Shown here piece by piece: positions 1,234 through 64,000 of a stretch of DNA of 64,000 nucleotides. Location of the stretch: positions 17,340,170 through 17,404,169 of the forward strand of contig OZ316895.1 in assembly GCA_973895155.1 (NCBI GenBank), given 5' to 3'. The notes under the pieces are model-generated. The model ran no database searches and was not told where the DNA came from. It worked only from the letters and a program-made list of their open reading frames with translations. A program made the translations under genes and the position numbers. Positions within the stretch are counted from its first letter, which is position 1. Each line of letters opens with the position of its first letter. The stretch comes from Marsupella aquatica (lineage: Eukaryota > Plantae > Marchantiophyta).

Positions 1234-1236
1234 GAG

Positions 1237-2471: not shown

Positions 2472-2834
2472 CCCTAAACTTTCGAAGAGAATTCCTGAGT
2501 TATTAGCTGGAGATTATTCAGTTTTAGGACCCAGACCACATATCCAGTCAGTCAATGATACAGACTCTTGGAAGTATTTCAGATAGCCAGAGGTGAAACG
2601 TTACGCTTAAAAACGCTTGAAGTAGTTTTCATATCACAGTTGTTATCCTCCAGTGGCATGCTAGGTGACTTGACGTTGGGTCCACTAGGAGCCTTCAATT
2701 CTTACGTGGTCTGATGAGAAATCAAGGGGCTGCAGTCTTACGGACTCCGACGTGGATTCGAAAACTGTCCTGATGAGAAAGTGGCCAATTAGCTCAATTC
2801 GGACTCAATGTTTTCGATATCGGATTCCGATTAT

Positions 2835-3180
2835 TGGATGGATGGTAAGACATGCTTATCACCCATCATATTTCCCAATTTAGAGGAAAGACACTGGAAT
2901 TTTGCCGAAAAGGTAATATTTTTAGCCATTGTCATGATCTGAACCGTCTTTGAGCAGTCCACTTCTTCAGACCCGCGAAGAAATTTTAATATGGCGAACT
3001 TAGGAGCATGGATGTTGGGTGGATGGTTACATATGCTTATCACCCGATCATATTTCCCTTCTTTGAAGGACGGACACAAGAATTTTGCACAAATGTAACA
3101 TTTATTGTCATGATCGCTACCCGTCTTTAAGTAGCCCACTGCTTCAGACCTGGAAAGGAATTTAAATGTGGAACTTAGCT
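2835..3180. repeat. Diverged ~180-bp tandem duplication inside minus-strand ORF 2831..3304
   Basis: ATGCTTATCACCC..ATCATATTTCCC, ATTGTCATGATC, CTTCAGACC and GAACTTAG each occur twice in the same order. Confidence 0.75.
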
Positions 3181-4091
3181 CGACCGGAATTCGCCGTTCA
3201 TGACTTCTCTCAAATCTGGTAAATGAAGTGGACCAATGCAGAGGAACTGGTCTTTCACTTCGAAGAGGCAAACTCACATTTGGTTTTGCGACTAGTCCGT
3301 CCATTACTTACTCCCCTCCTAGAACAGAAAATTCACTGCTCTTTGTTCAGATTCGTCAAAATCGAGAAAGTAGAAAATGCAGTTCCAACAACTGAGAATT
3401 AAGCGAGCCCTCGCGAGAGTTTTGTAACTGAATATTGGACACCTGGGTTGAAGCATAAACGAACCCGACTTTCAGAAGAGTTTTCCGAGATGTATTGGAG
3501 AAAAGTAATTGATACGGAGTACACGGTATGATCAGTCTGTTGTTGACAGGAAACAGTTGACATTAAAGTCAGTTCCCCAAATTCCGAAACGACTGCAATG
3601 CGGTCTGCCATCATATCTTTGCTGGTCTACCTAGAAGTAAATCGTACCGATCAAAGGTAGGTAGGTTATGTCTGGTCAAATATCGCTTCCAAGGGTCGGC
3701 AATACACTATGCCTCTCTTCTCAACTTATTTACAAGATGTGTGGACAAATGTTGACTTTCATCACAAATATAGATGAATCTTCCCACTATGAACTACTGC
3801 AGTCAGTGCTACTTTTTCTGACTTCCTCTCTAACTCACCTCAGTTGCAGTGTAATTCCTCCTTTGGGCACATACACGTTTGTCCGGCCTTAGTCGCTGTG
3901 CTTCTCGTTTGGCATACACTAAACATGTCAGCGCAAGATAGCAATCAATGCGTTTTCTTAGAGGTCACCAGGAATGAATCCTCTCTTTCCAAATAGAATC
4001 CGGAGAGTACTGTTTGCATATTCTCAATTGCTCCCGATTAATAGACTCGAAAATTCTGCTTTCGGGCTACAATCCGAGTCAATCTTGGAGC

Positions 4092-11800: not shown

Positions 11801-12057
11801 AGTCCGTCACCGTTTGGTGGGCTCTGTACATTTTGCAGTGGCTTGTGTAGAAGAGTGAGAGAAAGGGGCCTTGTGGATTTTGCTGCATAGATTGCCTGGC
11901 AAGGCGACGGATCTGTGTGGCATGTGCCGAGCTTGGGCCAGTTTTGGGTGATGCTGGAATGGACTGGGCAGAGGTCTAATTGGTGAAGACCAGGGAGGAT
12001 TCGAGAGGGTTGGTCTGGTGCAATTTATTTGAGAGTGTGCTGCTGCAGTGAGACGAA

Positions 12058-42100: not shown

Positions 42101-43511
42101 TATGGACCCCCATGAGAGGTCCCTTGCAAATTCTCTGCCACGAGGTTGCACCACATCAGCACAACTAGCCACAAACAGGAAAGATCATATTTTTACGGTA
42201 ACAAAAGCACCACATTCATGTTTGTGGCAAAAACAATGTAATTTTTGGGGCGCCCGGCCATAAGTATTAAGCGTAAAAACAACCAAAATACAAAGGAAGA
42301 GATGTCATTTAGTAAAATAAAGCTACCATTATGATGTCTGTCAATGACATATCAATGTTTTACATCAAAATGCTTGTATTTTATAATTGTTTGCAAGTTT
42401 GAAAAAACCAATCAATAGAAATGTACATATATAGTTAGAACTCTTTTGGCTCCCCCTTTGGCTCCACATTGTAAAACTAAATAATCAATCTCCTTAGTAC
42501 TTCATGAAATCTGTTAATGTTTGATTCATTGGAAAGCTCAAGATCAAGATTTAGAAACTCATGACCTCTTTAGTATTGTCTTGATAAAATCTCTCAATGT
42601 CACTCATTGGAAAGCTAGAGTAAAAGTAGAAACTCATCTCCTTAGTACTTGACAATGTTAGGTTCATTGGAAAGCTAGAGAAATTAGGATTCTCATGATC
42701 TTTCTAATTCTTGACAAATACTCTCAATGTCACACATCATAAAGCTAGAGAGAGATTGAAAATCTCATGATGTCTTTAGTACAGTGACAAAATCTGACAT
42801 GAAATTTGTCAATATTGGTTTCAATGTTGGAAAGCTAAAAGAATTCATGAACTCATGATCAAAATTATTATTGTCACACTCATTGGAAAGGCAGGGAATT
42901 CGAAAGTCATTTGGAACTTGACAAAATGTGTCTATCTGAGGCTCATTGGAAACCCTTTCTTGACTAAGAGATGCACAATCTCATCATTGTCACAAACTTA
43001 ACAATTGCAAATTGATTTCTTTGATTACGTCCCCATCACTTGTCCGCAACGCTTGCTTCCCGGCTTGAATTGTTTGCGTCCCTCCAATCTTTAATTGAAG
43101 CTCACTCTAAACATAGGTTGCCACTAAATGCAGTCTCCCCCTCACACCAAAGCTTTCTTAATTAAAAAAAACTACAAAACCTTCATGTGAAGTGTTGGCT
43201 CGTCCATTTTGTGCGTTCTTCTTACCGCAATGACAAGTGCGCTTTCACCAACAGTTGTGTGTTGTACTCTAGTTTGTCTTGTGACGGTGATACTCAACGT
43301 AACTCACAAATGATCAATGAGGAATGGTAGAAACACAATTTCTCCAATGTGTAAGCAAAAACCGTAAACAAATCCAATTCTTTCATATTCAACCTTCCAT
43401 TTAATAAACCAGAGAGATCACCTTAATTAGATCAACCTCCTATATTTTTTGAGCGTTCTCTTTTGTACGAACACACACCAAACCACTAGGAGACTCAAAA
43501 CCATTGGTTAT

Positions 43512-43855
43512 TGTTGAGCATAGACGACATTCGCAACGGCAAGCCCATGAACCATCCAATGCACAATAGTCGACACAGAGAGATATGTGGTTCACCTCCA
43601 CATGAGGCTACGTCCACGGGAACACACAAGAGCTTTACTGCACTCTAGACCGACCGGCCATACCAAGCATCCACAGCACAAGCTCTCCCTATCTCTCAAC
43701 TAGCTCCGTAACAATGAGCCTAAGTTCCATCAAGGTCTCGCATCAGCCCTGTCTATATGCACAATAGCACTACCGCTAACTTTAGCTAAGTCCTAACCCA
43801 AGTTAGCCTAACTGTGGTTAGCTCATGAGTCACAAGACTAGAGCAATATCTAACA
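43512..43855 (-). mobile_element. Ty1/Copia 3' LTR (344 bp)
   Basis: TGTT...AACA termini. On the minus strand the PPT AAGGGGGAG lies just upstream, and the GTGGACGTAG...GTGAACCAC motif common in plant Copia LTRs is present. Confidence 0.75.
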
Positions 43856-44070
43856 AACTCCCCCTTGACTCTTGTCTTGGGGACTGGACTAAATGCTACC
43901 ATATGGAATCCTCAACGGGAAGTTCTAAACAATCACCAACCAGGTCTCCCCCTAAAAACCACAAGGGTTAACTAAGGGTTAACTAGAACTAAGCCATAGC
44001 CAAACAGGAATGAGTAATCCATATACAAATAGTCATACATTGCTAAATAACTCTACTTGCGCTACAACTG

Positions 44071-45222
44071 CTAAACCTGCAAAGTAGCATGGTGTCTTGA
44101 GAAACTCTCCAAAGGAATCACTTTGGTAAAGGCATCAGCGGGATTGAGCTTTCCATCAATCTTGACTAGCTCAAAAGTTTTATCAGACACCGCTTGCTTG
44201 ATAAAATGGTACCTGATATCAATGTGCTTCACCCTGCTATTCATCACCTGGTTAGTAGCCAAGTGAAGAGCACTCTTACTATCACAGTTTAGAGTCATTT
44301 TGCCATGCTCTAAACCCATCTCCGCGATCAACTTGTCCAACCAAATTGCTTCCTTTGTTGCTTCTGTTGCTGCAACATACTCTGCTTCTATAGTAGACAG
44401 AGATATACACTTCTGCAAGGTAGATTTCCAACTGATACATCCTCCTCCAAGAGTAAATTCAAACCCAGTTGTAGACCTCCTTGTGTCCAGACATCCTCCA
44501 TAGTCAGAATCTACATAGCCAACTAACGTTCTATCTGATCTGACATCAAATAGTAATCCACAGTCCTGTGTTCCCTTCAACCTGAGAATCCACTTCACAG
44601 CTTTCCAATGTACCTTCCCTGGATTTGACATGAATCTGCTAACCTTGCCCATTGCTAGGGCCAAGTCAGGCCTAGTACAAGTCATCAAATACATCAGGCT
44701 GCCTACTGCCTTCTCATAAGGAATCTTAGCCATTAGACCTTTCTCCACAGCATCCGTAGGAGAGAAAACCGATGATAACTTGAAATGTGAAGCTAAAGGA
44801 ATACTCACTGGCTTACAATTTTCCATGTTGAATTATGCAAGTACTTTCCTCGCATAGTGGCCTTGACTCAAGCACAACTATCCAGTTTCAGAGTTCCTAA
44901 AAATCTCCATCCCTAAGATTCTCTTGGCCTTACCAAGATCCTTCATCCTAAATTCAACACTCAATTTTGCCTTGAGATTGTCAACCTCAGATTGATTTTT
45001 AGCCACAATCAGCATGTCATCCACATAGATCATCAGAATGATGAAACCAAATACATCATTCTTGACTGATTTTGTATACACACAAGGATCATACACCATC
45101 CTTGTAAAACCTCAAGCATGAAATCATCAAACCGCTTGTACGTTCCACTGTCTGGGAGACTGCTTCAATCCATACAAGGACTTGAGCAATCTGCAAACTA
45201 AGTTCTCTTGGCCCTTCTTCAT
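44071..45222 (-). pseudogene. Ty1/Copia RT-RNase H remnant with frameshifts, truncated by a Gypsy insertion at 45223
   Basis: LKSLYGLKQSPRQW, IYVDDMLI, MKDLGKAKRILGMEI, VGSLMYLMTCTRPDL, GYVDSDY, SLSTIEAEY, KHIDIRYHF, NPADAFTK. Confidence 0.93.
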
Positions 45223-47290
45223 AGTGGTGGCCCTCCCACCACATGCCCGTCTAAACTTGTTTCTCAGCCTTGAAACAAGTCAAACCTTGCACTAACACGG
45301 AATGTTGGGGCAAGTTCTCTCCGACTATACTCCTTGTCGTTAGCAACCCCTCCCATACAAAGCTGCACTTGCCCTCGTCAGCACAACCGTCGCTCAACGG
45401 TCCTTACTATCTGCACATGCAACCAACCAATCGATAAGAATCCATCTTGATCTCGGAACTCCCAAGACTATTGTCTTGCATCAAGCTCAACAGTCATTAG
45501 TAAGTAGGTCAGTGGATAGAGCCTCCCAGGCCCGCATGGCCTTGCCATAAGCTGAAACTAAGATCGACATCACTGTTCGTCTGGAACAGTCTATCTATTG
45601 GATGTCGCCCAAGCTTCCCCACTTTCTACCCGTCAATGGCTGACCGCCCTGCCTCCAAGACATGCCCATGGCCCAAACTCAGTTTGTCCCAAACTAGTAG
45701 TAACACGCCGGGACCATCCAATTTCTAGATCTTAGCCACGTCTCTGCGAAACCGGGTTCCGCTCAACCTCTCACCATGCATCGGGACCAGATCTCAACGG
45801 TAGCCCCCAGAGTCTACTTGGTTCTACCTCTCCAACATCAGATCCCCGTGGGAACCAAATGCCGTTTGGTCACTGTTTGACTTTGGATCGGCAAGAGGGA
45901 CGCCCCCCATTGCAAGCTTCAAAACCAAACCATCCAATTCAAAATCAGAGAGCACCATGAGGTATTTTTCTTCATTAGCTTTCCAACGAGCCCAAGAACT
46001 CCCCCAACGGAGATCCGGTCGTCGAGTTATGCTTGTTTCCGCTTCAAAACTCGAAACGACGTATCTTCGTCGATTGCGATCAGCCCGAGCTCAAACTTGA
46101 GAGGACCACTCCCCTCATATATGCTTCTGGGGACCTACCACCCCCAGACCAGCTTTGGTCCCCTATCTTTGGCCCCCTACCCGAGGGTCCGTGGGCCCTG
46201 CCACTTAGCTCGAGTCGTGGAACTTGACTACCTTAACACTTAGCTCCGGCGTCGCTGACTCCGACACCGAGCTCCCTTATGGTCCAGGCCCGGATAGGCC
46301 ATCCGGGGAGGACTTAGCATAGGGAGACTTGTGGGCCAAATGTTTAGGGACCAAAGCTGGTCTGGGGGTGGCAGGTCCCCAGAAGCATATATGAGGGGAG
46401 TGGTGTCTCCTTGGGGGCTAAGGGCAAGCCGAAGTCATGAGCCGCGGCGGTCGCGACACTAAGGGAAACCGCCAAACAGAAATGACGATATCTTCTCAAC
46501 GGGAAGTCCGTTGGAGGACTTCCGGGGTTTGTTGGAAAGCTCTTGAGTAGGGCTACGCCCTCCAGAACTCAGATGGGTTTGGGGGTGCTGTGAGTTCTTG
46601 TGGTTTGCGGGTGTTAGCAAACCCGCTTGCCAAATCCTGCCGAATAGCAGCCAAGCCGCGTTCAGCCTCCCAAGGGAGTTTGCATTGGGGAGGCAAGGCC
46701 AAGTAGGTGTGGAGGCTGAGTCCCAAGGGTGCTCGGTCCCTAGACCATCAGTGGGGCAAATCGGGAGCGGTTGCTAGGGTCGGGGCCGTTCTGGTCCCGG
46801 CGTGTTGGAACAAGCTTGGGACAAGCTTTAGGACAAGCTACGCTATTTGGGCCATGAGCATGTCTTGAGGTCAAGGCGGTCAGTTGGTGATGGATAGGTA
46901 TGAGGGGGACCCCGGGCCGTGCCCAAGGAAGGAGTTGTCCTGGACGGACAGTGGGCGTGGGTTCTGGTTCCGGCTTATGGCATCAGGAGGACCTATCATT
47001 GACCTATTTACCAACGTCTGTTGAGCTTGAGTTAGGATGCTAGACTGGGCAAGTTCTAGATCCGGAGGGGTTACTTACCAAGGTGCTTGGTTGTTTGTGT
47101 AGACAGTGAGGACCATTGAGTAGCGGTCGTGCAGGTGAGCAAGTGCGGCTTCGTATGGGAGTGGCCGCAGGTGGTGCTAGAGGCACGTGGATGCTTGCTC
47201 GAGGTATCCCGTGGAGGCATTCGAGCACCAAGGGCACTTAGGAGCAAGTGCCGGGATTGGTGAGGGCGTTGTGTGGCGAGGTCCACCACT
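45223..47290 (+). mobile_element. 5' LTR (~2.07 kb) of a chromovirus-type Ty3/Gypsy element; whole-length imperfect palindrome
   Basis: Begins exactly where Copia RT homology stops and is followed after 2 nt by the PBS. Termini AGTGGTGGCCCTC / GAGGTCCACCACT are inverted (12/13 match). Mirror-image blocks occur throughout. Confidence 0.72.
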
Positions 47291-47292
47291 TG

Positions 47293-47304
47293 TGGTATCA
47301 GAGC
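47293..47304 (+). promoter_or_regulatory. Primer binding site complementary to the 3' end of tRNA-iMet
   Basis: TGGTATCAGAGC. Confidence 0.9.
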
Positions 47305-49562
47305 GATTGCCAGCATAGACACCGGGCCGGGGTCGTGCTAAGTCAGAATCCAAAAATCTTAACGGATTTTTGTGGGGACTTAGTGCTTCAATGTGCTTGG
47401 CGGGTCGACTGCGGGCAGATTCGGTGGCTGGGAACATGGCGAAAAACACTCGTGCAAAGAGTGGCAAGTAGGCTCCCCCCACCAAGGGGAGAGCCCAAGT
47501 TCACGATGAACAGAAGGAGGACGGGTCGACTTCCCTAGACAAACATTACAAGCAGGATGAAGAACACGCAACGGCCGAACCGTCAACCGCTGCAGCAAAC
47601 AAGTCAAGTGCAGAGCGCCGTCAACTTAAAGGGAAGGAGGTGGCTGATCCTTCAGAGGATGGGTCGGATGACGATGACTCTGACGCAACCGCAAGCGACA
47701 ACAACATTGAAGCTGAGACAGAGGAAGAGGGTCAGGACCCAAAAGAGGAACTGATCCCAGCCTTGAGAGGGTTGAACGTGGAACCAAAAGATGATGCCGA
47801 GTCGGACATCATCGTGGATAATTTGACCAAGCAGAACCAGGATGATGCGGGTCATACCTCAGTCCCGGGAGGTCATGGTGCTCGCAAGACGTAGGGGGTG
47901 TCACCAAAATCCACAAAAGAACCTAAGGATAGGCGGCCCGCAAAGGAAAGACAGTTGGAGGACCGTTCTCATACAACCCGCAAGGGCCCGGCCGCTGACG
48001 ACGGTCTGGGTCCATTGACTCAAGACCAACGACTCATCTATGAGCAGTTGGAACACAACAAGGGGGCCCAGATTAAGTACTTACTTAGTCTGGGTAGTCA
48101 GAGTGCGTCACATCCCGAGGGGGGAAATGGTAGTTGGACGGAGTATGTTCCAGGTGAACCAGCTACCGACTCCTCCAACTTATGATAGGGCCTATGAACA
48201 AAGTGGACAAAAGTTCTTGAGTTGGCTCTCCACGATGGAGATTCATCTCCAAGCGTGCGTTGAGCGTTCCACTTGGGCTACCGCAGCCACTCCTTACCCG
48301 AAGGACTATGCCTTGACTTGGTACAAGTCATGGAAGAAGTTGCGAGAGGACTTCTCCGAGGGTTTTCACCGTGACAGCAAATAGCAAACAGATTTACTAT
48401 TACGAGTGTCACTTGCCTATCCAATGATTAATACGTGCAAACCATACTTTTCCTTGCTTAAACCGTTGGTATCGTATTACGGGGTCGTGGAGGGACGCTA
48501 TTTGGAGGATTTTCACACCTAAGGAGGAGTATGTTTGATTCCGCTCCCGGAAGTGTACTTTTTTATCAAGTCTACCGACTGGTCTCTCTGTTTTTGATCA
48601 AGTCCAAGGGACTGGTCCTACCATCTACAACTCATGCCCACCGGGTGAGTGCTGTCACCACCCCCCTCCTCTCTTGGGCAAGCATACAAACATTTACAAT
48701 AAGATTTGAACACTAGTGACAAGGGCAAATGTTTCCACAACGACACCGACCACACGCACTAGGGGAGGAAAACAAACAACACAAGCAACAACAAGTGACA
48801 CACAAAATATTGGAACCTCAAGCCAAATCCATATCTCTTGGTTTTTCCCGTAACACATGCAAGGACAACCCGGCCTCCTGCCGTCTGCCCAACTCCTGCC
48901 TCCCGGGGACAAGTGCTACGTTCTCCACCTCACTACTCTGGCTTGAACTTCTCCTAATCGGTGTGCTACTCACAAAAGCTACTCCAAGCACTACGCTGAG
49001 TTCCCCCCAACTACTTCGGGGCTCTCCCCCTAAATACCGAAAAAACCACACCAAAGCACCCCTCATGGGGTCACAACGATGGCGGCTTACCCTAGCGGCG
49101 CCGCTAAAACCCTGCACTAAGAAATCCCTAAGCTAAAAAGGCATGCAACACACACATGCTGCTAAAACCCCAAACCCTAAACTAACAATGGGGCCGACGG
49201 TGCCTTCGACGGTGCCCCAACATTACTTCGTGAACCGTGAAATTGCAAGGAACCCTACAATGGCCAAAACTAGGCGCCTCTCCACCTGCACTACTGAGTT
49301 CACCCCTGGATGGTCCCCCTCCTCCTGATCATGAATCACTCAACCGCTCTCGAAACGGACCTCAGACGACCAAGTTATGGCCGTTTCCGTATCCCGTAAA
49401 CACAACTTCGTCGGGCCATAACCTGCTCATCCTGGCTCCGTTTGAGGAGCGCCGCCCCTTGTTGGAATCAGCTCCGCGAGCTCTTTCCAACAAGCCCGTG
49501 AGTGACCCCTCAAAAATATTTGGAAAGTCCAGGGGCAGTACAACCACGTCCGTACGACCACT

Positions 49563-51344
49563 CTAATCCTCCTCATCTTCACTCACGGTGCCCTGGCTTG
49601 AGCCCCGTGAGTGGGCCTCCTCATCACTCTCCACTGGAGTGAGTGCCACTTCACTCCTCTTCTTCTTTACCGGGGTACTCCTTGTGCTAGTGCTCCCCTG
49701 CTTCCTCAAATTGGCCAAGGCCTGCCACGCCTTAATGTACCCCTCACCAATGGTGTCCTTCCATAAGGCCGCCTCTTCACCGGACCGCAACTCCAACGGT
49801 AAAACCTGCCCGGTGGCCATGGGAGTCCCAGGGGTGACAGATCGGGTGGCATCCCCGGGGTCCCCATGTTGACCTGAGCTTCTCATAAAGATTTACGTAC
49901 CTCCCTGAGCTTTTTCTCTAAGCTCTTGCTCTTCTCTTGACTCTTCTTGGCTGCATCCAACAGGGGTCCGTACTTCCCACTGACTTCCTTCACCACCATC
50001 TCAATGGCCTTGGAGATCAAATCCGGGGAAAGTGTGGAGCTAGATGTGCAGGGGTTCTTCCATTTCCCCAGACTCAAGGCTTCACTCCTCTTAGCCCTTG
50101 TCTCAAAGATCACCAATTGACTCCGTAGTGCTCCCACCTGGGCTCTTAACTCCACCATTTCTCCAGAATTCTGCTTCTCTTTGGCCAATGCTTGTTTCAA
50201 TACTCCAACCTCTTCCGCTTCCTTGGCCTTGGTGGACAAGGCTCCCTTCAAGTTGAAGATCTCTATGTGAGCTGCTTGGAGAAGCTTAACCTTCTCATGA
50301 ATGGCCTCCTCCTTGGCCTTGATCACCTCCTTCATAGACAGGGCACTCTGCTCCAAAGTCTCTACTCTAGCGGTGGCCTGCTTGAAAGAATCTCTCAATG
50401 CGTGGACTAGCTTGAGTCCCTCATGGACTCCCTCCCGAAATTCCCGTAACTCCGCCAGGTAGACATCAGGAATGTCATAGACCAGGGGCTCCTCCGGATT
50501 TCCCACCAGTGATTCAAGCCACTCCAATGTGGAGTCCTCATCCTGGTTTTCTTCCTCTCTATTATCATCCCCCACCGTCGACGCTGATCCCTCCGTTAGT
50601 TTTCCCAAGATGGTAGTGGCAATACTCCTGATTTCCATGGTAAGGGATGATCCAGAGTCTTCCTGTCCCGGGGAAACAATCCACCCTTCTGCTCTGGCCA
50701 GCAAAAATGACCCCATCAAATGTACAGCCCCACCGGATTTCACACTCCCGGGATCAGCGTCCAATGGCTTCTTCAACCCGTAGTACCACCATCCGTACAC
50801 ATGGGCTGGATAGTTCTTGATGTCCATAGCTACTACGAAATGTTCTCCATTCACCACCCCAGATTGCACGTTACCCAGGACCCGTTGATGAACCTTGGCC
50901 AGAAATCCCTTGTGCTCAGCATCCTTGACAGCGGAAAGAGGAATGGACGTAGTGGAGGTGGGATTAATCACCCAACCGGCCACCATTTGTCAACGTGAGC
51001 TCTCCCCTTATGTTCCGAGGTGTGAATGAGAATTGCTGGTTCTCCAGGAACAGAAGCTTAGCTAACTCCACATGGGGCACTACCCGTGGGAGACATTCAA
51101 AGTAGATTCCTTCCGTACATAACTCCATCCCGGCCTCAATGTTCCAACTCTTGTCCGAAGGGATTCTAATCTCTACTCTCATGAAGTCGGTGAGCCCGGT
51201 GGCCTGGAACATAGCTTTGCAATCTTCCATCACCTTGGCAGGGGTCTTGGGGTAAATTCGACGGAAAACCTTCCTCATAACCGATGCGGGACTTGTTGCC
51301 GGTCCAGTACTCATCGTAGCGTCCCTCTCTTCTCTCTCTTGCAA
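49563..51344 (-). pseudogene. Long ORF(s) inside the solo LTR: TE accessory protein with an acidic region and a coiled coil, probably one disrupted ORF
   Basis: Adjacent ORFs of 126, 367 and 107 aa in the same orientation, with a heptad-like region (LRDSFKQATARVETLEQSALSMKEVIKAKEE...). Confidence 0.6.
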
Positions 51345-51807
51345 TCAATGTCTCAACATAGTCACGGTAAGCAGCCTTGTATCTCCGAATGCGTGCCTCA
51401 CTAAACTCTGGTTGATCCAGCATCCATGCATCCAGAAATCCAATCCTCAATCACCAAATCCCGTTACCCATAGCAATGTCAATCCCCTGGCCCGAAACGG
51501 CCCCCGTATCCCAATCAATCAATTACTCTCAATTCCCCCAGAAGCCACTCCGTGCTGCTGCCGCTAATGCCCGGAAGAATCAGGCCACCAAGCCCCGCCA
51601 ATCTACCATGAGAGAGAGCTTCAAAAATAATTAGAAGGTGGAGAGAGCTTTCGGCAAGGTGTTGAGAGAGAGCTCAAGTTTTGCTTTCGACAAGGAGAGG
51701 GTCGTGCAAAAGAGGGAGAAAAGAAGGGAAGAAAAAAAACAAAAAAATTCCCCACGACACCTCCTTCGCCTTGCGCCCCGGTGCCCTCCTGCGCCTCACT
51801 CGCGGGA

Positions 51808-52304
51808 GCCCCATAAGGGGGAATTTTAATTCCCCCCCATCCCCGAGCGTACCCCGGCTCCGCCGCGCCATTTCCCCCCTTCGCGGGAGTCCCGGCTGCG
51901 CTCTCCTTTTTGGGGATTTAATTTTTCTCCCCCGGCAGCCTCTCTCACAGCCACCCCCGCTCACGGGCTCACGGGAGGGTTTAATACCCCCCTCCTTTAC
52001 TCCTCTTACTCCAATTACCCCTCGGCTGCGGCCCGGCTACCCTCTCCCCGACTTACCTTGGCTTGCCCCGGCTCGCCCTCTGCCAGCCTAGGGATTCCAC
52101 GTGGCGGCCCTAGGGCTGCCCCTTATGGGCCCCCAAGTGCTCGCCCTCTGCCAGGCCACTTTAAGGGGCATTTAACCCCCCTCCACGACCTTCCTGATCA
52201 CCGGCCTCCCACTACCCCGGCCTCCTCCTTAGTACTCGCGGTGCCCCATAAGGGGGAATTTTAATTCCCCCCCCATCCCCGAGCGTACCCCGGCTCCGCC
52301 GCGC
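51808..52304 (+). repeat. ~62-bp direct repeat with a GGGGGAATTTTAATTCCCCCC hairpin
   Basis: GCCCCATAAGGGGGAATTTTAATTCCCCCC(C)ATCCCCGAGCGTACCCCGGCTCCGCCGCGCC at ~51808 and ~52243. Confidence 0.9.
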
Positions 52305-55300
52305 CTCGCTTTTCCCTTATTCCGTAAAGGTTAGCACTCCTCCTAATCCTTATTTGGGGTCTCAACGAAAGAAAGAGGGAATCAGGGCCTAAAGGAAACA
52401 GGGGGTCCACTTAGACCGACCCTAGTTTCAAGGTCCCAACATCCTGGCTTACTGGGAAGCCTTAGGCCTCCAAACTATTAGGATATCCAAGAATGTAGAG
52501 ACCTCCGGGGCATAGCAACCGATAATGCCGGTCGTAACAAAAAAACAAAAAAACGGCTTATTTACAATGGTTATTTACACTCGGCAACACTCCGCGACCA
52601 TTATTCGTGATTTTGAGTGACGGGGACCCCGTCACAACGAGCAAAAAAATTCTTGTTACGAGCAAAAATTTACTGTTACGAGCAAACTAGACAATCTCAA
52701 AATATGTCATTAAAAGTCACAATTTTCAAAATAATTTAAAACATGACAATGTTTTGCTAGTGTAAGGCGATACTATTACTAGCTCCGGGCGCTAGCCAAA
52801 AAATATCGACTCACAAAAAAAATTTAATAATTTTTCACCAAAAAATTTCCAAAAAAAAAATTTCCAAAAAAAATTCCCCCAAAAACATTCCAAATTTTTT
52901 ACCACCCATTTGCTGTTACGAGTAACTATTTGCTGTTTGCTGTCACGGTGGTTATACCCACTTCTCCTTGCCGTTAACTTGGGAAAACCTGGTTGAGGGT
53001 CTCCGTGCTCATGTCACCACTAAGTACCCAGAGCGGCACGCTCAGAAATGTGTAACGGAGATGAGTTTCAAGGGTGATATCCAAAAGTTCATCACTTATT
53101 ACCAAAATCAGTTGGCGTGTATCCCGGCGGGACAAGAGACCCTGCATACACAGCTTCACAACTTTATCGTGAAGCTCTCGCCGTTGCTCAGGGAAAAATT
53201 GCAGGAAAAGCGTCATGAGTTCAAAACGCTTTCTGACGCCTTTGACAAGGCCACTACATTGGTGAATAACCGACCGGACTTGGCGAAGGTGGGTGGCAAG
53301 GGATCCAAGGGGGAAGCTGGGAAAGCAAAAGGTCCCGGGAATAAGCGGAAGCAACCTGAGGGGGCGGGGGCCGGTGGTTCAGATCCCCAGCCCCAGAACG
53401 GAGAAGCCAAGCAAAACCGGAAGGCCGGAAACTTTAAGAAAGGAGCCTCACCGGCACAAAAAGCAAAGAAGCAGGCAACCATGGAGCAAAGGCGGGCTGA
53501 AGGTTCGTGCTTCACATGTGGTGCCATGGGCCATCAAAGTAAGGATTGTTCCACGAAAGGTGGCAAACCAAACGGAGATGGTGGAGGGCAGAAGAGCATT
53601 AAGGTAAGTATCGCTCTAACCAAACCCTTAGTAGCTGACATGGTCCCTGTAGGGGATGTCCCTGACGGAGAGAGGGTGTTGTTGCGAGAGAAGATACCTA
53701 AAGTTAAGACAATGGATCCTGAAAAAACTGATTTTTGTGAATGTCACTTCTAACGGTAATCTGGGTGTTGCTTTGATGGATACAGGCGCGACCGCCTGCT
53801 TCATAAGTGGGCAGGTGGCAACTCGTCTTGGGGTGGACGTGCAAGAGTTGTTACAACCGTTAGTGTGCAAGTTCGCCAATGACATGAAGGGGATAGTGTC
53901 AAGAGTAGTGCATAGACTTCGGGTAGAGGTCATAGGCGAACAACAAAATTCTGTTAGTCAGGAGATGTTCTACGTTCTAGATGGTCTAGCCGTAGACTTC
54001 ATTTTGTCGGTAGGTTATCTCAAAAAGCACAATGTTACCTTGAAACTGGGGGGTGAGGTGCTCCATTTTCCCAATAAGGGCGGTGAGCCCATAGTTGTAC
54101 ACAAAATTACCGAAAATAAAGAAAGATTTCTTAAAGTAAGTAAAGTGTCGTGGATGTCTCCGTGTGTATCGACAAAGCAATGGTGGAAAGACTTCAAGGG
54201 TGGACATGAACGTTTCTTCTTTCATATCCACCCAACTAAGGAGGCGTCGCAGCCAAAGGTCAAGTCAGCTAAGGTCGGGCCCGACTGCGGTCGAATTCCC
54301 AAAATTTTAGAGGAATTTAACGACGTGCTCTCGCAGAAGCTACCTAAAGGTTTACCCCCGTAGAGAGAAGTGGATCACCAAGTTGAGTTGGAGCCGGGAT
54401 TGGCTCCTTAGGCTAAAGCTCCTTATCGTCTGAACCTGAATGAGCAAATGATGTTGAAGAATGCCTTGGAAGAGTTGATCGACCAAGGGTTCATTTGCCC
54501 TAGTAAGAGTCCTTACGGGGCGCCCGCGCTGTTTGTGTCCAAAAAGGATGGTACTTTGAGATTGTGCGCAGATTACCGGGCCCTCAATAAGCAGACGATA
54601 AAGAACAAGTACCCGTTACCTCATATGGATGACCTCTTTGATTGCCTCTCCAGGGCTAAGAAGTTTTCAAAGGTGGACTTGTGGTCTGGGTATTACCAGA
54701 TCCGCATGGCTAAGGGAGACGAGTATAAGACCGCGATGCGCACAAGGTTTAGATCCTATGAGTTTTTGGTTATGCCGTTTGGGTTGTGTAATGCAACCGC
54801 AACGTTCATGAAGATGATGAATATCATCTTTCATGACTTGTTGGACCAAGGAGTGGTCGTCTTTATTGACAACATCCTAATCTACTCAAAAACATTGGAG
54901 GAGCATGAGCAGTTGCTCAGAGAAGTGTTCTCTCGCCTTTGTAAGGCTCGTCTCTTTGCTAAACCTAGCAAATGCGAGTTTGCGATGAACGAGATTCAAT
55001 TCCTTGGCCATACCTTTACCCCGGAAGGGATTACGCCTAGTCAGGACAAGCTTAAGGAGATCAAAGAATGGGAGCGCCCGTCCAATGTAAGGCAAGTTAG
55101 AGCCTTCTTAGGATTTACGGGGTTCTATCGGAGATACATGAAGGACTATGCGAGGATCGCGAGGCCCCTCAATGTGCTAACGTTGAAAAACAAAGTGTTT
55201 GTGTGGACACAGGATTGCGAGTTAGCATTCCTAGAACTTAAGCGGTTAATGATAACGCCGTCGATTCTAAAGTTACCTGCGATGGGAAAGCCGTTTGCGA

Positions 55301-56119
55301 TTTGGACAGACGCAAGTGATTATGCCATCGGCGCCTATTTTCACCAAGATGGGTGTCCTATGGCCTTCGAGTCATGTAAGTTGGAAAATCACTGGATCAC
55401 GCCGGAAAGAGAAATGTATGCTGTGATCTACGCATTGAAGATGTGGGAGATTTACCTTAAGAACGATCCTAAAGTGGTAATCCACACAAATAGCTCGCCG
55501 GCCGAGTACTTCAGTTCTAAGCCAAGGCTGAACCCCAAGGAAATGCGCTGGCAGATGTTCTTGGCGGATTTTGATTTCAAAGTCCCACGTTCCAGGGAAG
55601 ACAAATACGGCAGCGGACGCGTTATCGCGTAAGGACCAACATCGTGTCAATGGGATCACAATGCTCAAATCCGAGTGGCCAAAGTTTCTGGCCGCAGCGT
55701 ATGGGGATGACAGGTTAGCTAAGGATTGGCAAAGCAATGGGGGTAGCCCGGGCAAGGTAAGGCACGTATTGTTGGGGTTGGATACGATGCATAATGTCCA
55801 GTTATGGCAATACAAGCAGAGGTGTGTGTACATACCAGAGTCTCTAAGGTTAGAGGTTTTGCAAAAGTACCATGACTCGCCCTAGGGAGGGCACGGAGGA
55901 CAAGCCGCCACGTATCGCAACATGTCGCGAGATGTGTATTGGCCGGACATGAAGCAATCGGTCCTTCAATGCGTGCAAAGTTGTTACTCGTGCCAAAAGA
56001 ACCGAATGGTCTATAGGGCAAAAGGAGGACTGCTGCAACCCTTACCAGTAGTTGTGGCTCCATGGGAGTCTATCTCCATGGACTTCATTGTTGGATTACC
56101 AAAGTCCCACGGCAGTAAC

Positions 56120-59100
56120 TGTGACACGGGTAACGTGTCACTTAACCAAACCCAGGTCGTAGATTAGGTCTTATACGGACATTCGGACCGTAGCCGTAGC
56201 GTAGGATAGCACGTATAGCCGTCTGTTGCCATTATGAATAGATTAGGAGTAGTTTAAGATGACCGAATGATTACAAGTTCAGGAAGAGGATTATTACGCG
56301 CGACCGAGGTACGGTGGCGGCAGCGGAGTAAAAATCAGTTAGAAGAATCACGCTTGGACCGAGGCGCCGACTTCAGCTCATTATCAATGACCAAAACAGC
56401 CTGGCCTTCTCACGCTCGGGCTCACCCTGGCACCTCCATAAGAGAGGAGCCGATGGTGCTGTGGGCCATTTGCTCTTTTCCACCTTTTTGGAATTTGCAG
56501 ACGTTGCCATCCACTTGCCTTTCTGATCGAATCAAGTTGACCTTTACAAGGAGATTATCGAGGGATAAGAGCGAAATGTGGCGAGATTTAGTCAGGACGA
56601 GCAAGGCCTCCACGAGAAAAAGGACCAGCCAGGTGGGAACGTGGACTCAACGAATTGGACTACAAGGTTAGTATGACCCTTACAGCCCTGGGATTCTGGA
56701 CCTTGTTTGGCGAGGTAGGTGCTAAGTTCTCCGAGACTTACTGGTACTCTTGTCCCGAGAAAGCCGCTTACAAACAAAGATACGCGAAGCTGGTGACCAA
56801 GGTAGCACTGGTTAATTGCGAAAGGACAGCCATCACCAGGGATTCCAGCTACAACGAGCTGCGAGACTATATACATCACCAAACTATATCTCAGCAAAGA
56901 AGGGCTTAGATTGGTAGCAGAGGCGATTCTTGAAGTCCCAGCAAAATTCTTTAAGCTGAAAGGCAGCCAGCGGCTTACTCAAGCGGAGTTTGAAAAGATT
57001 CCGGGGTACCTAGACCAGCAGAACGCAGCCAAAAAGCGTCAAGAAGACATCAACAGACAACGGGAAGCGGCGCGTAATCTTACGTTCCTTGGGGAAAGCT
57101 CCAACGCGCCTTCAACTAGGATATGGCTACCCCGATAGCACCAGTGCCTCAGCAGATGACCATCGGCGTACCGCCAAACCGGTCCCAAGTCCGTCCAGTG
57201 ATCAACATAGAGTGTTCTTCGGGTTCCGAGTGAGTTAGTCCGCAACTCGAACAACGTTCTCGTAAGCGACCAAGGACGACGATGGCCCCCGAATCAACAA
57301 CGCATACCAACGCCGCGCCTGCACCTGCCCGACAAACCCCCCGGCCAACCAGACCCAACGGCCCCCGGATAACCCAAAGTCCAACTTATTACAGGTAATC
57401 CGCGTCCCCAAAGTAGTCTGGATCGCGATCAAGAAACTCAAACACGCGGACTATCTCAAGGAGCATCAGTTGGAGCAGTTTGCTCACTTGCTATGAAGGC
57501 CGTGCGCTGTCGGGCCGAAGGAGATTTGTGAGTTCATCTCCAATTTCAACACTAACGCATTGACCACCAAGGTTTTGGGGCAGGCCTTATCACTCACGGA
57601 GCATTGGTTAACGCAAATCTTCTGCCTGCCAACCGGGCTAGTGCCGGTGGAACTCCAAATTTGGGATAAGGAGTATACACCGCGACACTTCAAACCCGAG
57701 GGTAAGACGGACAACGGATACAAGTAGGGGTCGTGCACCAACTTAATCTGCATGGAGCGTCTTAACTTCATACGGACTACCCTACACATGATTGAGCCAC
57801 GATCCGAGATTTCCCTCTGCATGATCGTGCAGGTGGAACAGTACAAGCGGCGGAACTGGGCCCAGTTCTTCTACCAAAGATTCTCAGGGGAGCTGAAGCG
57901 GGCTCAGGGTGGTATGGCTATTGGGGGGAAGACTTACTTGGGAAGTCATATCGCCATTATCCTCGCCTGGTACAAGGCCCAGCGAGAGGCCAGAGGAAAG
58001 AATATGGCCGCCTAAGCCCCGACTAATACTCCGCCACCTCCTCCTGTGGAAATTCCTCCGCCCCCTTCTCTCGAGCCTCCGCTACCCGTAGTACAACCAC
58101 CCCCAATCCCTCCACCACCTGAAGAAACCTTCCCCTCCCCAGCACAGACTACGGATGAGCTCGTTGCCCCGCCCGAGGAACCACCGGTACTCGAGAGGAT
58201 GGAGGACTACCAAGTAGCCCCAGGGACCATGGCCTATGACCTGGTCCAGAATTTTAGCCAGACTATGTCTGGGGAGCTGGAGACGTACATCGGACAACAA
58301 GTCTCGACGTACTTTCAACCAGCCTTCTTCATGTTAGAGCATCAACCACGGATCGTAAGCCACTTGGAAGAAGAACTCATGGCGAAGGAAATGAGATAGG
58401 GCGCCTCCAGATGCTGGTAGAGCACCTCGAGGAGGAGGCCACTACTCGCCGCGAGGAGTTAGTCTGCACCGTCGAACAGAGGGACGGACTAACCCAGGAG
58501 TTAAGCGGAGCGCAAGCAAATCTCAAGAAGCTGGACAACACCGTGCTTCAATTACGCTCAGAATCTTTGGCTCGGGTTACCAGCCTGACCGACCTCAACA
58601 AACAATTCCTGCAGGCAGCACAGCAGGTGGCTGGTCTCTCCGCCAAACGGGATAAATTGCTGGCGCAGGACCAGATCCATCGCGACTCCATTAACCAGCT
58701 CAACCTGGAGGTAGCACGGCTCCAGACCGAGGCCGATGAAGCTGCAAACGAGGCGGAGAAGGCGGTGCGGGACAACAAGGCCTTGCAGGACCGCGTTACC
58801 CTGCTCGTCCTCCAGCGGGGAAAACCTGGGCCCACCTCTGATCAAGGCGGCTCGAGGTCTCGCCCCGACAAGGGGACCAGCCCTGGTCCAACCACAGCAC
58901 ACACGTAAGGGGTGGTTAGCAAAGGGTGGAAGCAGGCGCCGCGCGAGGCAGTTAAGTCAGCGGCATCTTTCAGTTAGGTGTAACGATAGAATGGCTGTCA
59001 TTAGGCGCCGATTAGCGGCAGTAGGGAGAATTAGGGCCAGATCAGTTAGGATCAGCCAATGTAGGATGGAGTCTATCAACGGACTAGATTTTTGTCAAGT

Positions 59101-59878
59101 AGACTTGGCCGCTGCCATCCCGGTCGGCACCATTGTCGTCGACGGTCAACCAATCAGTGCGGGAGGTAGTTAGTCAGTAGGTAATATCCCGGAAGGTAGT
59201 ATCCTCCGGTTCCTTTCTGCAAACTATAGTATTTAGGCTTCCCCTTCCGCTATGGAAGGGGAGAAGGCATAGTTATCTCAGCAGAAGAAAGGTGAGGCAC
59301 GGGGAGTCCCGGCCTGAGCAGGGTCAGAGCGCACCAAGGAGTGAGAACCAGAGTCGAGCTTGCTGGGCAAGTGCGAGGCGGGGCCTCGTAGAGACTGGGC
59401 ATCGACTGCCGTTGGGCCTGCTGACCCCCTTTGAAGTCAAGTCAACCATGTAAACTGATGCTTCGCTGAGTAAATGTAGTCTTTTCCCTCCAATGTTTCT
59501 GCAAGTAACTGCTGTTGTGAGTATGCTTTGTTTGGGCAAAGGCACCATTTTAAGGGACGTACCAGGTGCGAACTAATGGTAGGGATTGCCACCCATTGTA
59601 TGTCACAAGGTTCTATCGCGTCAATGGCTTGAAAAGCCCCAAGCTGGGAGTTAGTCCGAGTCACTAACTGAGGGAGGATTCCAGCGGTGGAAAATAAAAG
59701 ATACCTATGACTAGTACGAATTACTTAAGTGTTATACTAGTAAGTATATCGGCTTAGCCCAACTTAGGGCTAATCGGGACCACTACACACCTCCTTGCCC
59801 GAACCCTCACCCCTACTGGTGGTCGAGGTCGCGCCATGGCGCTAAACTAGATTTAAGGCCCAGGTTAGGGACGTGACA
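56120..59878 (+). mobile_element. 3.76-kb LTR-like unit with internal ORFs, at the 5' end of a non-chromovirus (Tat/Athila-like) Gypsy inserted in the integrase
   Basis: Starts TGTGACACGGGTAACGTGTCAC exactly where integrase homology stops (LPKSHGSN|). Ends GTGACA, followed by the PBS-like TTTTTGGCGCTAGATGGAGGG (~59891) and then gag. Confidence 0.7.
56655..58908 (+). pseudogene. Disrupted accessory ORFs within the LTR (plant-transposon-protein-like region, Pro-rich linker, coiled coil)
   Basis: Consecutive segments broken by TAG/TGA/TAA: EICEFISNFNTNALTTKVLGQALSL..IFCLP, PPPPSLEPPLP, LVEHLEEE..LTQELSGAQANLKKLDNTVLQLRSE. Confidence 0.55.
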
Positions 59879-60184
59879 TATGACGACCGGTTTTTTGGCG
59901 CTAGATGGAGGGGGCACTCATTTTGCCTTACGAGTGGAGCTGTGTAGTGAGCTAATAACCTTTGATTTTGTACTTGACGTGTAGGAAGGGGCATGCCCCT
60001 TACCCGGTGACGTTCTGCGTATTTATAACAACCGGACGGAGCATCGAGTTTGGAAGAGAATACCGCATTCGACGGAGCGGGGAGCTCGGCTTCCCAAGCA
60101 GGATCGCATGTTGTGATGGGTACCCAAGCACCAACGGCGGGAGGAACTCCACCAGTTCCACTAGCCCCGTAGGTACCAGGTGCG

Positions 60185-61042
60185 TTGTGGCCCCCTACGG
60201 CTCAGAACGTGTGGCAACGATCCCGGTTTTACTATCGACCCTTTAAGGGACGACACACGGACGACCCCGATGAATGGATAGCTGAGTTTGAGGCCACGGC
60301 CAAGGCAAATGGCGAGGAAGCCATTAAGCTAACCATTCTTCCAGGCGTGCTACGAGGAGAAGCGCGCCCGTGGTATAACTTACAACCCCCTGGTTTCACA
60401 TGGGGCCAGTTCCAGACGGCGTTCTTGCAAGAATTTAGGCCCGTGGGGATCAAATCTCGGGCCCTGTCAAAAATCGGATGAATGCAGATGGGTAAGCATG
60501 ACTCACTTTGCAAATTTCTGCAGCGATTCCAGAAGGTTGCCGCCAAGATTCGGCCTAAGCCAGATGACTCTCTGCTGAGGAAATGGTTCATCAACACGCT
60601 ACCCCAAAGGATGGCGTTCTCAGTGCTAGAAAAGAAGACCACCACTCTACAACAAGCAATTGATAGCGCTGAATCCTTCAGGGAATTGCACTACGCCTCT
60701 CAGCTTAATAGGAGGACCAAGCATAAGAAGAGCAGGAGGTATCATACCTTCAGCGACTCCAACTCTAAGTACAACGAGAAGAAAAGGAAGAAGAAACAAC
60801 GACATAAGAAGAAGGGTCGGACAAGCTCTTCATTAGACTCTGATTCAGAGTCTAGTGATTCCCTGTCCAGTAGCCTGACGACAACTGGCTCATCCTCCAG
60901 CGAGACCGAGTCAGAGTCTCGTAACCACCGAAGAAAGAAGGGATCACGGTCAGATACGGGCAACATAAACCGCGAGCCAAGGTCGTCACCGCGGACCCCA
61001 AGGCCACTAAGGTAGAAAAGCTGAATGACATTACAGACCGGC
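60185..61042 (+). pseudogene. Retrotransposon gag (Retrotrans_gag-like), truncated by an insertion
   Basis: PFKGRHTDDPDEWIAEFE..LRGEARPWY..TWGQFQTAFLQEF; QMGKHDSLCKFLQRF..WFINTLP..TLQQAIDSA; Lys/Ser-rich tail; an internal TGA. Confidence 0.85.
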
Positions 61043-62226
61043 TGTAATGCAGTAGATTAGTTGGAAATGATGGAAAATTTATGAATTTTGAACTTTTTCT
61101 AACTCAAAGGTGTAATATAGCTACCTTTTGTAACAATTTAGATCAACTGAACACTTTACCTGATGTTATGCTTCATCGGAGGCTATTGCCTCTATTGGAC
61201 AAGGATCGCCATATAAATCCTTGCTCTTTGCATGCTACCAAGAAAGAAGACTGGACATCATTGGAGAAGCAATGCAGACTAGAAGATTCAAAAACCGGAC
61301 TCCAAAGCACTTCATAAAAAATGAGCTCTGTGTGCAATTACCATGATCAGCCAATCTTTGATATTTTAGTTAAATAGTTCTCATGGTCAGAAAAGTTTCA
61401 TACTTTTTCAGGAGGTAGTCATTACGCAGTAGAATCATCCTTGAAAGTTTCAGCTCAAGCCGACTTATAGCTAGGAAGTTAAAAATGTTTGAATCTGATA
61501 AGTTTTTGCTGCACCGCGATTACGTCTTTACGAGTTTACGCTTTTACGTGTATACGCGTTTATGCCTTCAACACTTAGAATTTTTTTTCGATTTTCTGTA
61601 GTTCTTTATTTCCGGTACTTTTTGGTATTTTATTGAAGTACCTAAACACCTCAGAAAAGTCTGAGATTTTACCAGCATGAAGACTATACCTAAGACAATA
61701 TTCTGGGAACGTTTCATCTTAAACTGATATTTGGTTTAGAAACTAAAATTAGGACAAAGCCACTATTCATTAGTTTTACCTTAATGTCACTTTTACAGTA
61801 GTTCACATTTGCAATACCTTTTGGTTAGTTTTATATACCAGGAACCCTCATGTGACCCTTAGGTACTACTGTAGCACACCTTTGTTATTTTTACTTTAGT
61901 TCAAGAACCCTTGAGGCATGAAAGGGCATATCCTTTCATTTTCTCTCTCCTTGGGTTTCTACCAGCCTATATAAAATAGAATTTATGTCATTTGAAATGT
62001 GAAAGAATTATGTAAGCACTATGTTGCAAATTTGCAGCATGACAAGGCTTCACTTTGTAGAGAGAAACTCTGTATTTGCATGAGTGATTAATACAAAGGA
62101 ATTCTTTCCCCTTCCTTGTGTTTGAATGTTGGAGATCAAACCAGAGAAGTAAAACCTTGTGAAATGGTGAAATCTTTTGAATGTATGAAGATAGATTCCT
62201 TAATTGGTGAAGGCTATACATTCCTA
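61043..62226 (+). mobile_element. Probable LTR fragment inserted in gag and cut by the CACTA element
   Basis: Abrupt switch to AT-rich sequence starting TGTAATG; TATA-like CTATATAAAA at ~61968. Confidence 0.45.
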
Positions 62227-64000
62227 CACTAGTAGAAAATGGGGCCTTTTATGACTATGACACATATGACTTATGTGCTCAAATGACAAAATGTGTAAAT
62301 GACATAACATAAATGACATTGAAATGACTGTCCAAAATGACGGGGTGCAAAAAATGACTAATACTTGCAATAGTGTCATTTAAACCAATGAGCCAAATGA
62401 CTTTGACTGCTATAATGACAACAATCATGAGTTGTAGTCATTTTGGACAGTCTTTATGAATGACACAATTAACAAAAACTCTGTCATATCAGTGTTTCAC
62501 ATATGGGAAGTCATTTCAGACGACGGTGACTAATGACTAATAAATCAAATATGCAAATATCAGTGTTTAAAAATGTTAGTAGTCATTCAAACCAAAAGTT
62601 ATAAATGACATGATAAACAACATATGACTATTTTGAGGTTTATGGTTTAGTATATGTTTAGGGTTTAGGGTATGATTAGCCGGCCATTAGGGATGCTACC
62701 CACTCCACATGGTGCGGGATGGGGTACTTGTACACCCTGAGCCACTAGTTATGCCACTTGGCCTCCACAACACATTTTAAAACACACATTTTGCATCATG
62801 GAAGGGCATCACCCAACTTTGGGCAAAACACTCCCAACTTGTATGACTTTGGAGTCATTTGCCCAAAGGGGTGCAAACCATTCTAATTTGGTCATTTGCA
62901 AGGGATCTTGAGTCATTTGTGCAGTTGACTAAAAGTTTTTGTCATTTGTGGAGTGCCGAGGGGTGTCATTTAAGCAAATGACACAAAAATAAGTCATTGA
63001 TGATGTCAATGCGGCAGTCAAGCATGCCATGGACAATATGACTCCTTGGCATCGTTGGGGGCTTATTCGCAATATACGTGATCGTAGCCGGCCATTAGGG
63101 ATGCTACCCACTCCACATGGTGCGGGATGGGGTACTTGTACACCCTGAGCCACTAGTTGTGCCACTTGGCCTCCACAACACTTTTTAAAATACACATTTT
63201 GCATCATGGAAGGGCATCACCCAACTTTGGGCAAAACACTCCCAAGTTGTATGACTTTGGAGTCATTTGCCCAAAGGGGTGCAAATCATTCTAATTTGGT
63301 CATTTGCAAGGGATCTTGAGTCATTTGTGCGTGTGACTAAAGGTTTTTGTCATTTGTGGAGTGCCGAGGGGTATCATTTAAGCAAATGACACAAAAATAA
63401 GTCATTGATGATGTCAATGCGGCAGTCAAGCATGCCATGGACAATATGACTCCTTGGGGTCGTTGGGGGCTTATTCGCAATATCTGTGATTGCAGCTGGC
63501 CATTAGGGATGCTACCCACTCCACATGGTGCAGGATGGGGTACTTGTACACCCTGAGCCACTAGTTATGCCACTTGGCCTCCACAACACTTTTTAAAATA
63601 CACATTTTGCATCATGGAATGGCATCACCCAACTTTGGGCAAAACACTCCCAAGTTGTATGACTTTGGAGTCATTTGCCCAAAGGGGTGCAAATCATTCT
63701 AATTTGGTCATTTGCAAGGGATCTTGAGTCATTTGTGCGTGTGACTAAAAGTTTTTGTCATTTGTGGAGTGTCGAGGGGTGTCATTTAAGCAAATGACAC
63801 AAAAATAAGTTATTGATGATGTCAATGCGGCAGTCAAGCATGCCATGGACAATATGACTCCTTGGGGTCGTTGGGGACTTATTCGCAATATCTGTGATTG
63901 CAGCTGGCCATTAGGGATGCTACCCACTCCACATGGTGCGGGATGGGGTACTTGTACACCCTGAGCCACTAGTTGTGCCACTTGGCCTCCACAACACTTT
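62227..64000 (+). mobile_element. CACTA (En/Spm) transposon left end
   Basis: CACTAGTAGAAAA terminus followed by dense ATGAC/GTCAT subterminal repeats. Confidence 0.8.
62678..64000. repeat. 408-bp tandem array (>3 copies, runs off the window)
   Basis: GGCCATTAGGGATGCTACCCACTCC recurs about every 408 bp; equivalent ORF stops fall at 62929, 63337 and 63745. Confidence 0.95.

Follow-up and report, generated by a model that had tools for sequence, protein, structure and literature searches.

Two giant putative long terminal repeats of a liverwort with decayed sense reading frames that probably lie within U3

Can a plant Ty3/gypsy retrotransposon carry its accessory gene inside the long terminal repeat (LTR) itself? 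In the available parts of the literature the extra open reading frames (ORFs) of plant elements are placed in the internal region (PMC6317226, PMC7264820, PMC6431247, PMC3485330, PMC3601003, PMC4408406, PMC11963269, PMC11728184, PMC545598, PMC7466625, PMC9412291, bioRxiv 10.64898/2026.09.17.752431). The question is raised by 64,000 nucleotides of DNA from Marsupella aquatica (Marchantiophyta; assembly GCA_973895155.1, contig OZ316895.1, forward-strand positions 17,340,170 to 17,404,169), referred to below as the window, in which an earlier note had recognised two large units, A and B, and had read both as LTRs with a protein-coding U3 region. According to the explanation that fits the data best, A is probably a solo LTR and B the 5' LTR of Ty3/gypsy elements whose U3 holds a real but decayed accessory gene, likely with an LTR promoter of its own and with a product predicted to be a nuclear coiled-coil regulator. 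The structural part of this explanation, LTRs with a U3-borne ORF, is held with good confidence; the regulatory role of the product is a tentative proposal that may well prove wrong.

Unit A occupies 48407..52636 on the minus strand (4230 bp, TG..CA ends) and was repetitive in all four of the sequencing runs whose contigs (run labels including X1, X3 and X4) provided the repeat evidence; these come from two studies and no more than four samples, and the best run is perhaps the window's own source. The unit is abutted on both sides by the 5-bp sequence ACGAG (plus strand, 48402..48406 on the left and 52637..52641 on the right), as the earlier note had reported, and this length falls inside the 4-6 bp expected for the target-site duplication (TSD) of a Ty3/gypsy LTR. 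ACGAG was accepted as a true TSD since one of its copies fits a 20-bp tandem unit of the host sequence. Comparison of the two ends of unit A detected no terminal direct repeat, and the TG..CA ends, the 5-bp TSD and the absence of such a repeat together give the unit the anatomy of a solo LTR. Its 5' end forms a hairpin (52617..52636, minus strand; z -3.0) that 3 of 200 shuffles equalled in folding.

Unit B extends over 3759 bp of the plus strand (56120..59878), its 3' end lying perhaps up to ~15 nt further, and it begins at the point where the integrase of a host Ty3/gypsy element, designated C, breaks. In all four runs contigs had their start at 56119-56120, where the letters upstream were mixed (agreement 0.41-0.60), and in three of the four the empty-site contigs carried the integrase on uninterrupted (agreement 0.95-0.98), so the 5' end of unit B is an insertion boundary, the end of an element. 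No terminal direct repeat was found when the two ends of B were compared, and its 5' terminal hairpin (56120..56141, plus strand; z -2.35) was equalled by 4 of 200 shuffles. The extents and 5' hairpins originally given for both units were thus reproduced.

Downstream of B lies a motif resembling a primer-binding site (PBS) and starting with TGG (59896..59912, plus strand), the sole match within the window, where 0.01 was expected. It is presumably of the tRNA-Asn type; repeated attempts to confirm the primer failed, no tRNA gene matching the motif being found. The gag previously read behind it received support from Pfam (60173..61015, plus strand, one internal stop; PF03732, E 9e-7, above the cut-off; Arc capsid, E 0.0026) and is cut off by a further insertion near 61043. 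With the PBS-like motif and gag downstream, the ORF of unit B falls between the 5' end of the element and the PBS. A palindrome in the 3' part of B, GCGCCATGGCGC (59831-59842), is both a repeat and a complement of the first letters of the PBS-like motif, which lies 59 nt downstream and with which it could pair in RNA. The insertion that truncates gag is itself an LTR-like unit (61043-62228, TGTAATG..CCTACA, with TATATAAA), and a CACTA-type end begins at 62227.

The coding signal was assessed by comparing the longest open frame and the number of frame breaks needed with 300 shuffles of each zone. The longest open frame of unit A, 368 aa, was reached by none of the shuffles, and its coding zone needs 4 breaks against a shuffle mean of 15.4 (0/300). 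For unit B the longest frame (216 aa) was reached by 3 of 300 shuffles; the region 56258-58908 needs 10 breaks against 17.2 (0/300), and 56580-58908 needs 10 against 15.0 (4/300). The sense-strand coding signal of A is strong and that of B moderate, and the shuffle test gave none in the 3' 630-650 bp of either unit nor in the 5' 1.2 kb of A. The earlier description of ~2 kb of sense ORF ending in a coiled coil therefore held for the sense-strand signal and had to be amended in two respects: the ORF is broken into pieces, three frames in A and five or more in B, and behind the coiled coil comes a tail of ~110 aa in A and 55 aa in B.

On the minus strand of unit A an open first piece of 126 aa (50964..51344, no Pfam family) precedes the main open piece of 368 aa (49883..50989), which comprises an unassigned domain, an acidic linker and a long coiled coil (predicted helices 175-367, heptad windows 175-298). 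The last open piece of 109 aa (49563..49892) combines the basic motif PVKKKR, taken here to resemble a nuclear localisation signal (NLS), with an acidic tail. A second frame ahead of the first piece and overlapping it (51609-51170, minus strand) looks like a helical protein after several stops. The plus strand of unit B opens with pieces of 137, 105 and 110 aa in different frames (56258..57138), where other copies differ at a frame break and at the last stop. The middle zone (57383..58399; codon-position GC 0.56/0.40/0.64), with a basic RKRPR motif just upstream, encodes an unassigned domain containing two in-frame stops and then a proline-rich linker, and the open coiled-coil piece of 216 aa (58258..58908, heptad windows 45-161) gave weak matches to SMC-type coiled coils, far below the cut-off. 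Each unit may hold a small upstream ORF beside the large one. Both products read in the order domain, low-complexity linker, long coiled coil and tail, with basic motifs that are assumed to be NLS-like.

Among 12 of the 105 indel rows, six fell in the coding zone of A: three were multiples of three, two formed a compensating pair and one lay at a frame change of the window copy. Four in the 3' non-coding part of A were all of frame-shifting sizes, and the other two lay in element C and at a frame overlap in unit B. For two stops in B, the aligned depth disagrees with the window copy entirely or almost entirely. The indel pattern and these window-private stops suggest, on a small sample, constraint on the ORF.

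Whether the ORF belongs to the LTR was judged from repeat depth, with the reservations that the depth of contigs does not measure copy number, that equally deep contigs were taken as one subfamily and that the figures come from part of each table. In each of the four runs summed depth dropped 6- to 14-fold across the 3' end of B into gag (47.9K to 7.7K, 44.4K to 5.2K, 7.1K to 1.2K and 14.3K to 1.0K), the bins over the ORF of B were about as deep as the last bin of the unit, and cover over B was continuous, without an internal step or TSD. A-like contigs had a depth of ~6010-6330 in X4 and of ~1570-1700 in X3 at the places listed, which begin at 48520-48583 (3' end) and pass through the ORF, as far as 51712 in X4 and 51044 in X3. 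Such near-equal depths are a strong hint, not proof, of one abundant subfamily with the ORF and the 3' end at a ratio of about 1:1. They argue against a short LTR with an internal ORF, because the depth of the 3' end should then be at least double that of the ORF.

Several features are common to the two units. Their 3' terminal 16-mers agree at 13 of 16 positions, and the TATA-like motif GTATTTAGG, a candidate in function, was located by motif search once in each unit (49029..49037, minus strand, in A; 59229..59237, plus strand, in B) and nowhere else in the 64 kb, ending 622 and 641 bp before the respective 3' ends; both observations agree with the earlier ones. Two occurrences compare with 0.30 expected and were reached by 3 of 100 shuffles, a modest result since the motif was chosen post hoc. 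In B the motif is directly followed by a strong 9-bp hairpin (59238-59262, z -3.43), and unit A has none comparable (z -1.37). Both units have a TG-rich stretch at 340-410 bp from the 3' end; according to the accessible text of PMC3601003, such a stretch is expected near a poly(A) site. Long similarity between A and B, already denied in the earlier note, was indeed lacking: the best nucleotide match was 20 nt (E 0.046), and alignment of the last 660 nt was no better than that of shuffles (55/200).

A number of results weigh against a gene borne by the LTR. A depth ratio of 1:1 fits a non-autonomous unit without paired ends as well. The 5' 0.8 kb of unit A is covered several-fold to tens-fold less than the ORF (855-3432 against 18.8-43.2K in X1), so the 5' part differs in most A-like copies. 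No contig of the four runs spans an element, and a full element with both LTRs was not seen; no high-agreement flank with a polypurine tract (PPT) before the B hairpin was present among 24 of the 56 loose-end rows. Inside unit A, 269 bp from the 3' end, a purine tract followed by TGGTGAC (48675-48651, minus strand) is a possible sign of a short LTR; there are 33 purine tracts of that kind in 43000-62500. The PBS-like motif sits 17 nt off the end of B and is not adjacent to it, a point in which the earlier description did not hold. As for the proteins, no Pfam or NCBIfam family was found for the products of A and B. Protein word searches were blank for the main piece of A against longer proteins, for its residues 1-190 against proteins of near length, and for the middle domain of B, likewise against longer proteins. 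The A and B proteins showed no similarity to each other (alignment z 0.3 or lower).

If the real LTRs were short, the ORF would be an extra ORF of the ordinary internal kind, A and B being deletion derivatives or non-autonomous units similar to large retrotransposon derivatives (LARDs). The poorly shared 5' part of A, the PPT-like tract plus TG within it, the internal position described for plant extra ORFs and the unseen paired giant LTRs all agree with such an arrangement, which was nevertheless judged unlikely: the ends of A and of B lack a direct repeat, the ORF stands at about 1:1 with the 3' end in A-like contigs, depth steps at the 3' end of B alone, and the PBS-like motif and gag come after the ORF of B. 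That unit B is no single unit but a mosaic of nested insertions is very improbable; although at least five insertions are nested in the region and the PBS of B is offset, cover runs over B with no inner step or TSD, and the same layout occurs in A between the TSD copies. A further possibility grants that the units are LTRs and regards the ORF as a captured passenger, decaying and without a role. This would agree with the many stops and frameshifts, chiefly in B, and with the failure to find homologs, but abundant copies have frame-preserving indels, stops are private to the window, two families without sequence similarity have the same layout, and the pol of host element C needs 4 breaks, equal to the coding zone of unit A, so the host pol is as broken as the ORF; a mere passenger is hardly to be expected.

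Common descent of the two units is a different matter. From the earlier reading of an LTR-borne accessory gene it could be retained that A and B have the character of LTR-type repeats with a sense frame and that A survives with its ORF between the TSD copies; the single lineage claimed for A and B received no support from the protein comparison. It is possible, if somewhat doubtful, that they are ORF-bearing LTRs of unrelated lineages which gained different genes separately, the shared ends being generic integrase sites. In addition to the lack of DNA and protein similarity, GTGACA ends are known in rice Tekay elements too (available text of PMC3485330), and the extra ORFs of Ty3/gypsy elements form 314 groups (available text of PMC6317226). 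Against separate origins, the 5' hairpin, the 9-mer at a matching distance and the TG-rich stretch at a similar 3' distance co-occur, and the order of domain, linker, coiled coil and tail is common to both ORFs. Separate lineages are compatible with the preferred explanation of A and B as LTRs with a gene in U3 and touch common descent alone.

Structure and profile comparison of the ORFs, envisaged earlier as a route to their identity, was run on the window copies and matched no homolog, family or fold. PF03078, PF10536, PF04195 and PF20167, families common but not universal in the extra ORFs of OTA elements, had no match in the products of A or B, single decayed copies lowering the sensitivity of the search. 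The single-sequence fold of the main piece of A had a mean predicted local distance difference test (pLDDT) score of 51 and is reliable just as long helices, for which Foldseek gave weak coiled-coil matches alone. The fold of the first piece reached a pLDDT of 37, and this piece had no Pfam, BLASTP, PDB or plasmid match. A weak Atlas lead pointed to Transposase_28 clusters (0.80). The C-terminal domain of D-Ala-D-Ala ligase, proposed for the first piece of A (Atlas 0.95, 178/256 features), failed on alignment; the likeness covers 41 residues of helix-strand (51138-51260, minus strand; ~7-7.6 bits, HHalign probability 20%), and an alignable ATP-grasp domain with the residues that bind ATP and metal was not recovered. 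Its score beats all 1456 scored of 2000 shuffles, and the lead was rejected because E 2e-4 is the chance level for one family picked from ~25,000. With 76 aa of B as query, the profile library yielded two matches, both to tandem-repeat proteins with scores summed over the repeats, and these were rejected as well. By eye, the domains of A and B resemble the plant-transposon-protein or plant-mobile-domain pattern; neither Pfam nor the A-B alignment supports this. Searches for related loci were blank in metagenomes with A and in prokaryote genomes with the coiled coil of B; the pattern of LTR end plus PBS retrieved 3 loci from metagenomes, all unrelated, and 0 from viruses, and there was no Rfam match in 46000-62000.

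By analogy, the LTR-borne ORF is most likely a variation on the known U3-gene arrangement of mouse mammary tumour virus (MMTV) sag, here in a plant Ty3/gypsy LTR. In the available text on MMTV sag/naf (PMC9412291) the gene lies in U3 and so in both LTRs, and a second U3 promoter can drive sag. The difference is that sag encodes a retroviral membrane superantigen, for which no sequence link to the present units is claimed, whereas the LTRs described here are of plant Ty3/gypsy type, ~4 kb long, with a coiled-coil product. A plant element with an ORF inside the LTR was not found in the literature searched, which lay outside subscription journals and did not include the main survey of extra ORFs (Steinbauerova et al. 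2011), and the sole paper there in which an LTR contains an ORF concerns MMTV.

Plant elements resemble A and B in other respects. As far as the available text of PMC6317226, PMC7264820 and PMC11963269 goes, OTA elements have a large accessory ORF (Athila ORF-1/Transposase_32, Ogre plant mobile domain, Retand TRP28), often with an SMC-like coiled coil and a predicted nuclear role, a 5-bp TSD as in unit A, and tRNA-Asn primers in 12 % of Athila, 15 % of TatII and 4 % of Retand elements. They differ in that the extra ORFs described there are internal, Retand LTRs measure 315-1194 bp, and the OTA Pfam domains were not detected in A or B. The Tekay elements Retrosat2, RIRE3 and RIRE8 with ORF0 (PMC3485330 and PMC11728184, partial text) have LTRs above 3 kb, a GTGACA 3' end and a sense extra ORF upstream of gag with an NLS, helices and proline-rich parts; they differ from the present units, whose ORF stands ahead of the PBS-like motif, in that ORF0 is regarded as lying apart from the LTR and the primer is mostly tRNA-Met. 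Membership of the Tekay group with ORF0 was discarded, the Met-type PBS of the region (47293) belonging to element C. The giant LTRs of Ogre and Burro are similar in length (1.9-6.5 kb in Ogre), but in the text available they are treated as non-coding, with internal extra ORFs (PMC6431247). Phygy and Selgy, with a 4-bp TSD, a tRNA-Trp or tRNA-Ala primer and no extra ORF (available text of PMC6317226), are unlikely relatives because A has a 5-bp TSD and both units have long ORFs.

How could the gene have entered U3? All the steps of expression and function proposed here are inferred. Several OTA and Tekay elements have a sense extra ORF between pol and the 3' LTR, and the present ORF may once have had such a position. 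If plus-strand priming shifted upstream of it, the ORF would join U3 and be duplicated by reverse transcription, which would copy the accessory gene into both ends of every element. Since the ORF lies upstream of the TATA-like motif, its 5' or solo copy would need an upstream U3 promoter; a U3 ORF would also sit at the far end of genomic RNA and would need splicing or its own promoter. A candidate upstream promoter in A is the GC-rich 5' region with a 73-bp duplication (51798..52305, minus strand; copies at 51798-51869 and 52234-52305), thinly covered in other runs, together with a pyrimidine patch upstream of the coding zone (51677..51736, minus strand) as the candidate start region of the ORF transcript; no clear counterpart was found in B. 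The transcript would run to the poly(A) signal of the LTR itself, and an LTR-internal transcription unit like that of MMTV sag is favoured. The product may be a dimerising chromatin- or DNA-binding factor that aids escape from silencing or integration targeting; even solo LTRs could provide it in trans. For Retand and Tekay elements of plants, extra ORF products that are nuclear, coiled or DNA-binding have been proposed, according to the available text of PMC11963269 and PMC11728184.

In its most far-reaching and decidedly speculative form, the proposal is that a lineage moved a gene of ~600-900 residues, of an unrecognised protein family, wholly into U3 and carries it twice per element, that the more numerous solo LTRs serve as stand-alone genes for an anti-silencing or targeting factor acting in trans, and that A and B are old sister families. 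U3 genes would be missed, since reviews of plant LTR elements assign extra ORFs to the region between the LTRs and LTRs count as non-coding in surveys. A gene in U3 would be duplicated at each replication and would outlive recombination between LTRs, usually viewed as the host's way of disarming an element. A solo LTR of this kind would be a natural minimal construct, with the gene and without gag-pol, for testing the function of plant extra ORFs, an open question in the field.

Both units are set in a nest of insertions. The host Ty3/gypsy element C (47293-56119), abundant in all four runs, has a Met-type PBS at 47293, a split gag, protease, reverse transcriptase (RT), RNase H and the integrase cut by unit B. 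Its gag is interrupted by a small inverted-repeat element (48367-52950; ~350 bp without unit A, CACCG ends, 20-bp subterminal repeats), inside which unit A lies, and contigs in three of the four runs join 48349 to 52960, which represents the empty site. The RT between A and B (54412-55632), through which the earlier note had hoped to place them, belongs to element C, into which they inserted, and to neither unit, and was rejected for this purpose; the window contains no pol linked to A or B. Nested inverted repeats with arms of 52, 36 and 72 nt and very high cover (45626-46897) probably represent a miniature inverted-repeat element in or next to the LTR of C, and a remnant of Copia-type RT/RNase H, read by eye, lies upstream of C (44071-45240, minus strand). 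At the other end of the nest a 408-bp tandem repeat (62678-64000, copies 96-97 % identical) runs off the window. Farther away are an intron-split gene for a sigma-70-type factor (12052-13817) and a Dicer-like gene (PAZ, RNase III, dsRBD; 31476-35195), by which the window is recognised as land-plant DNA.

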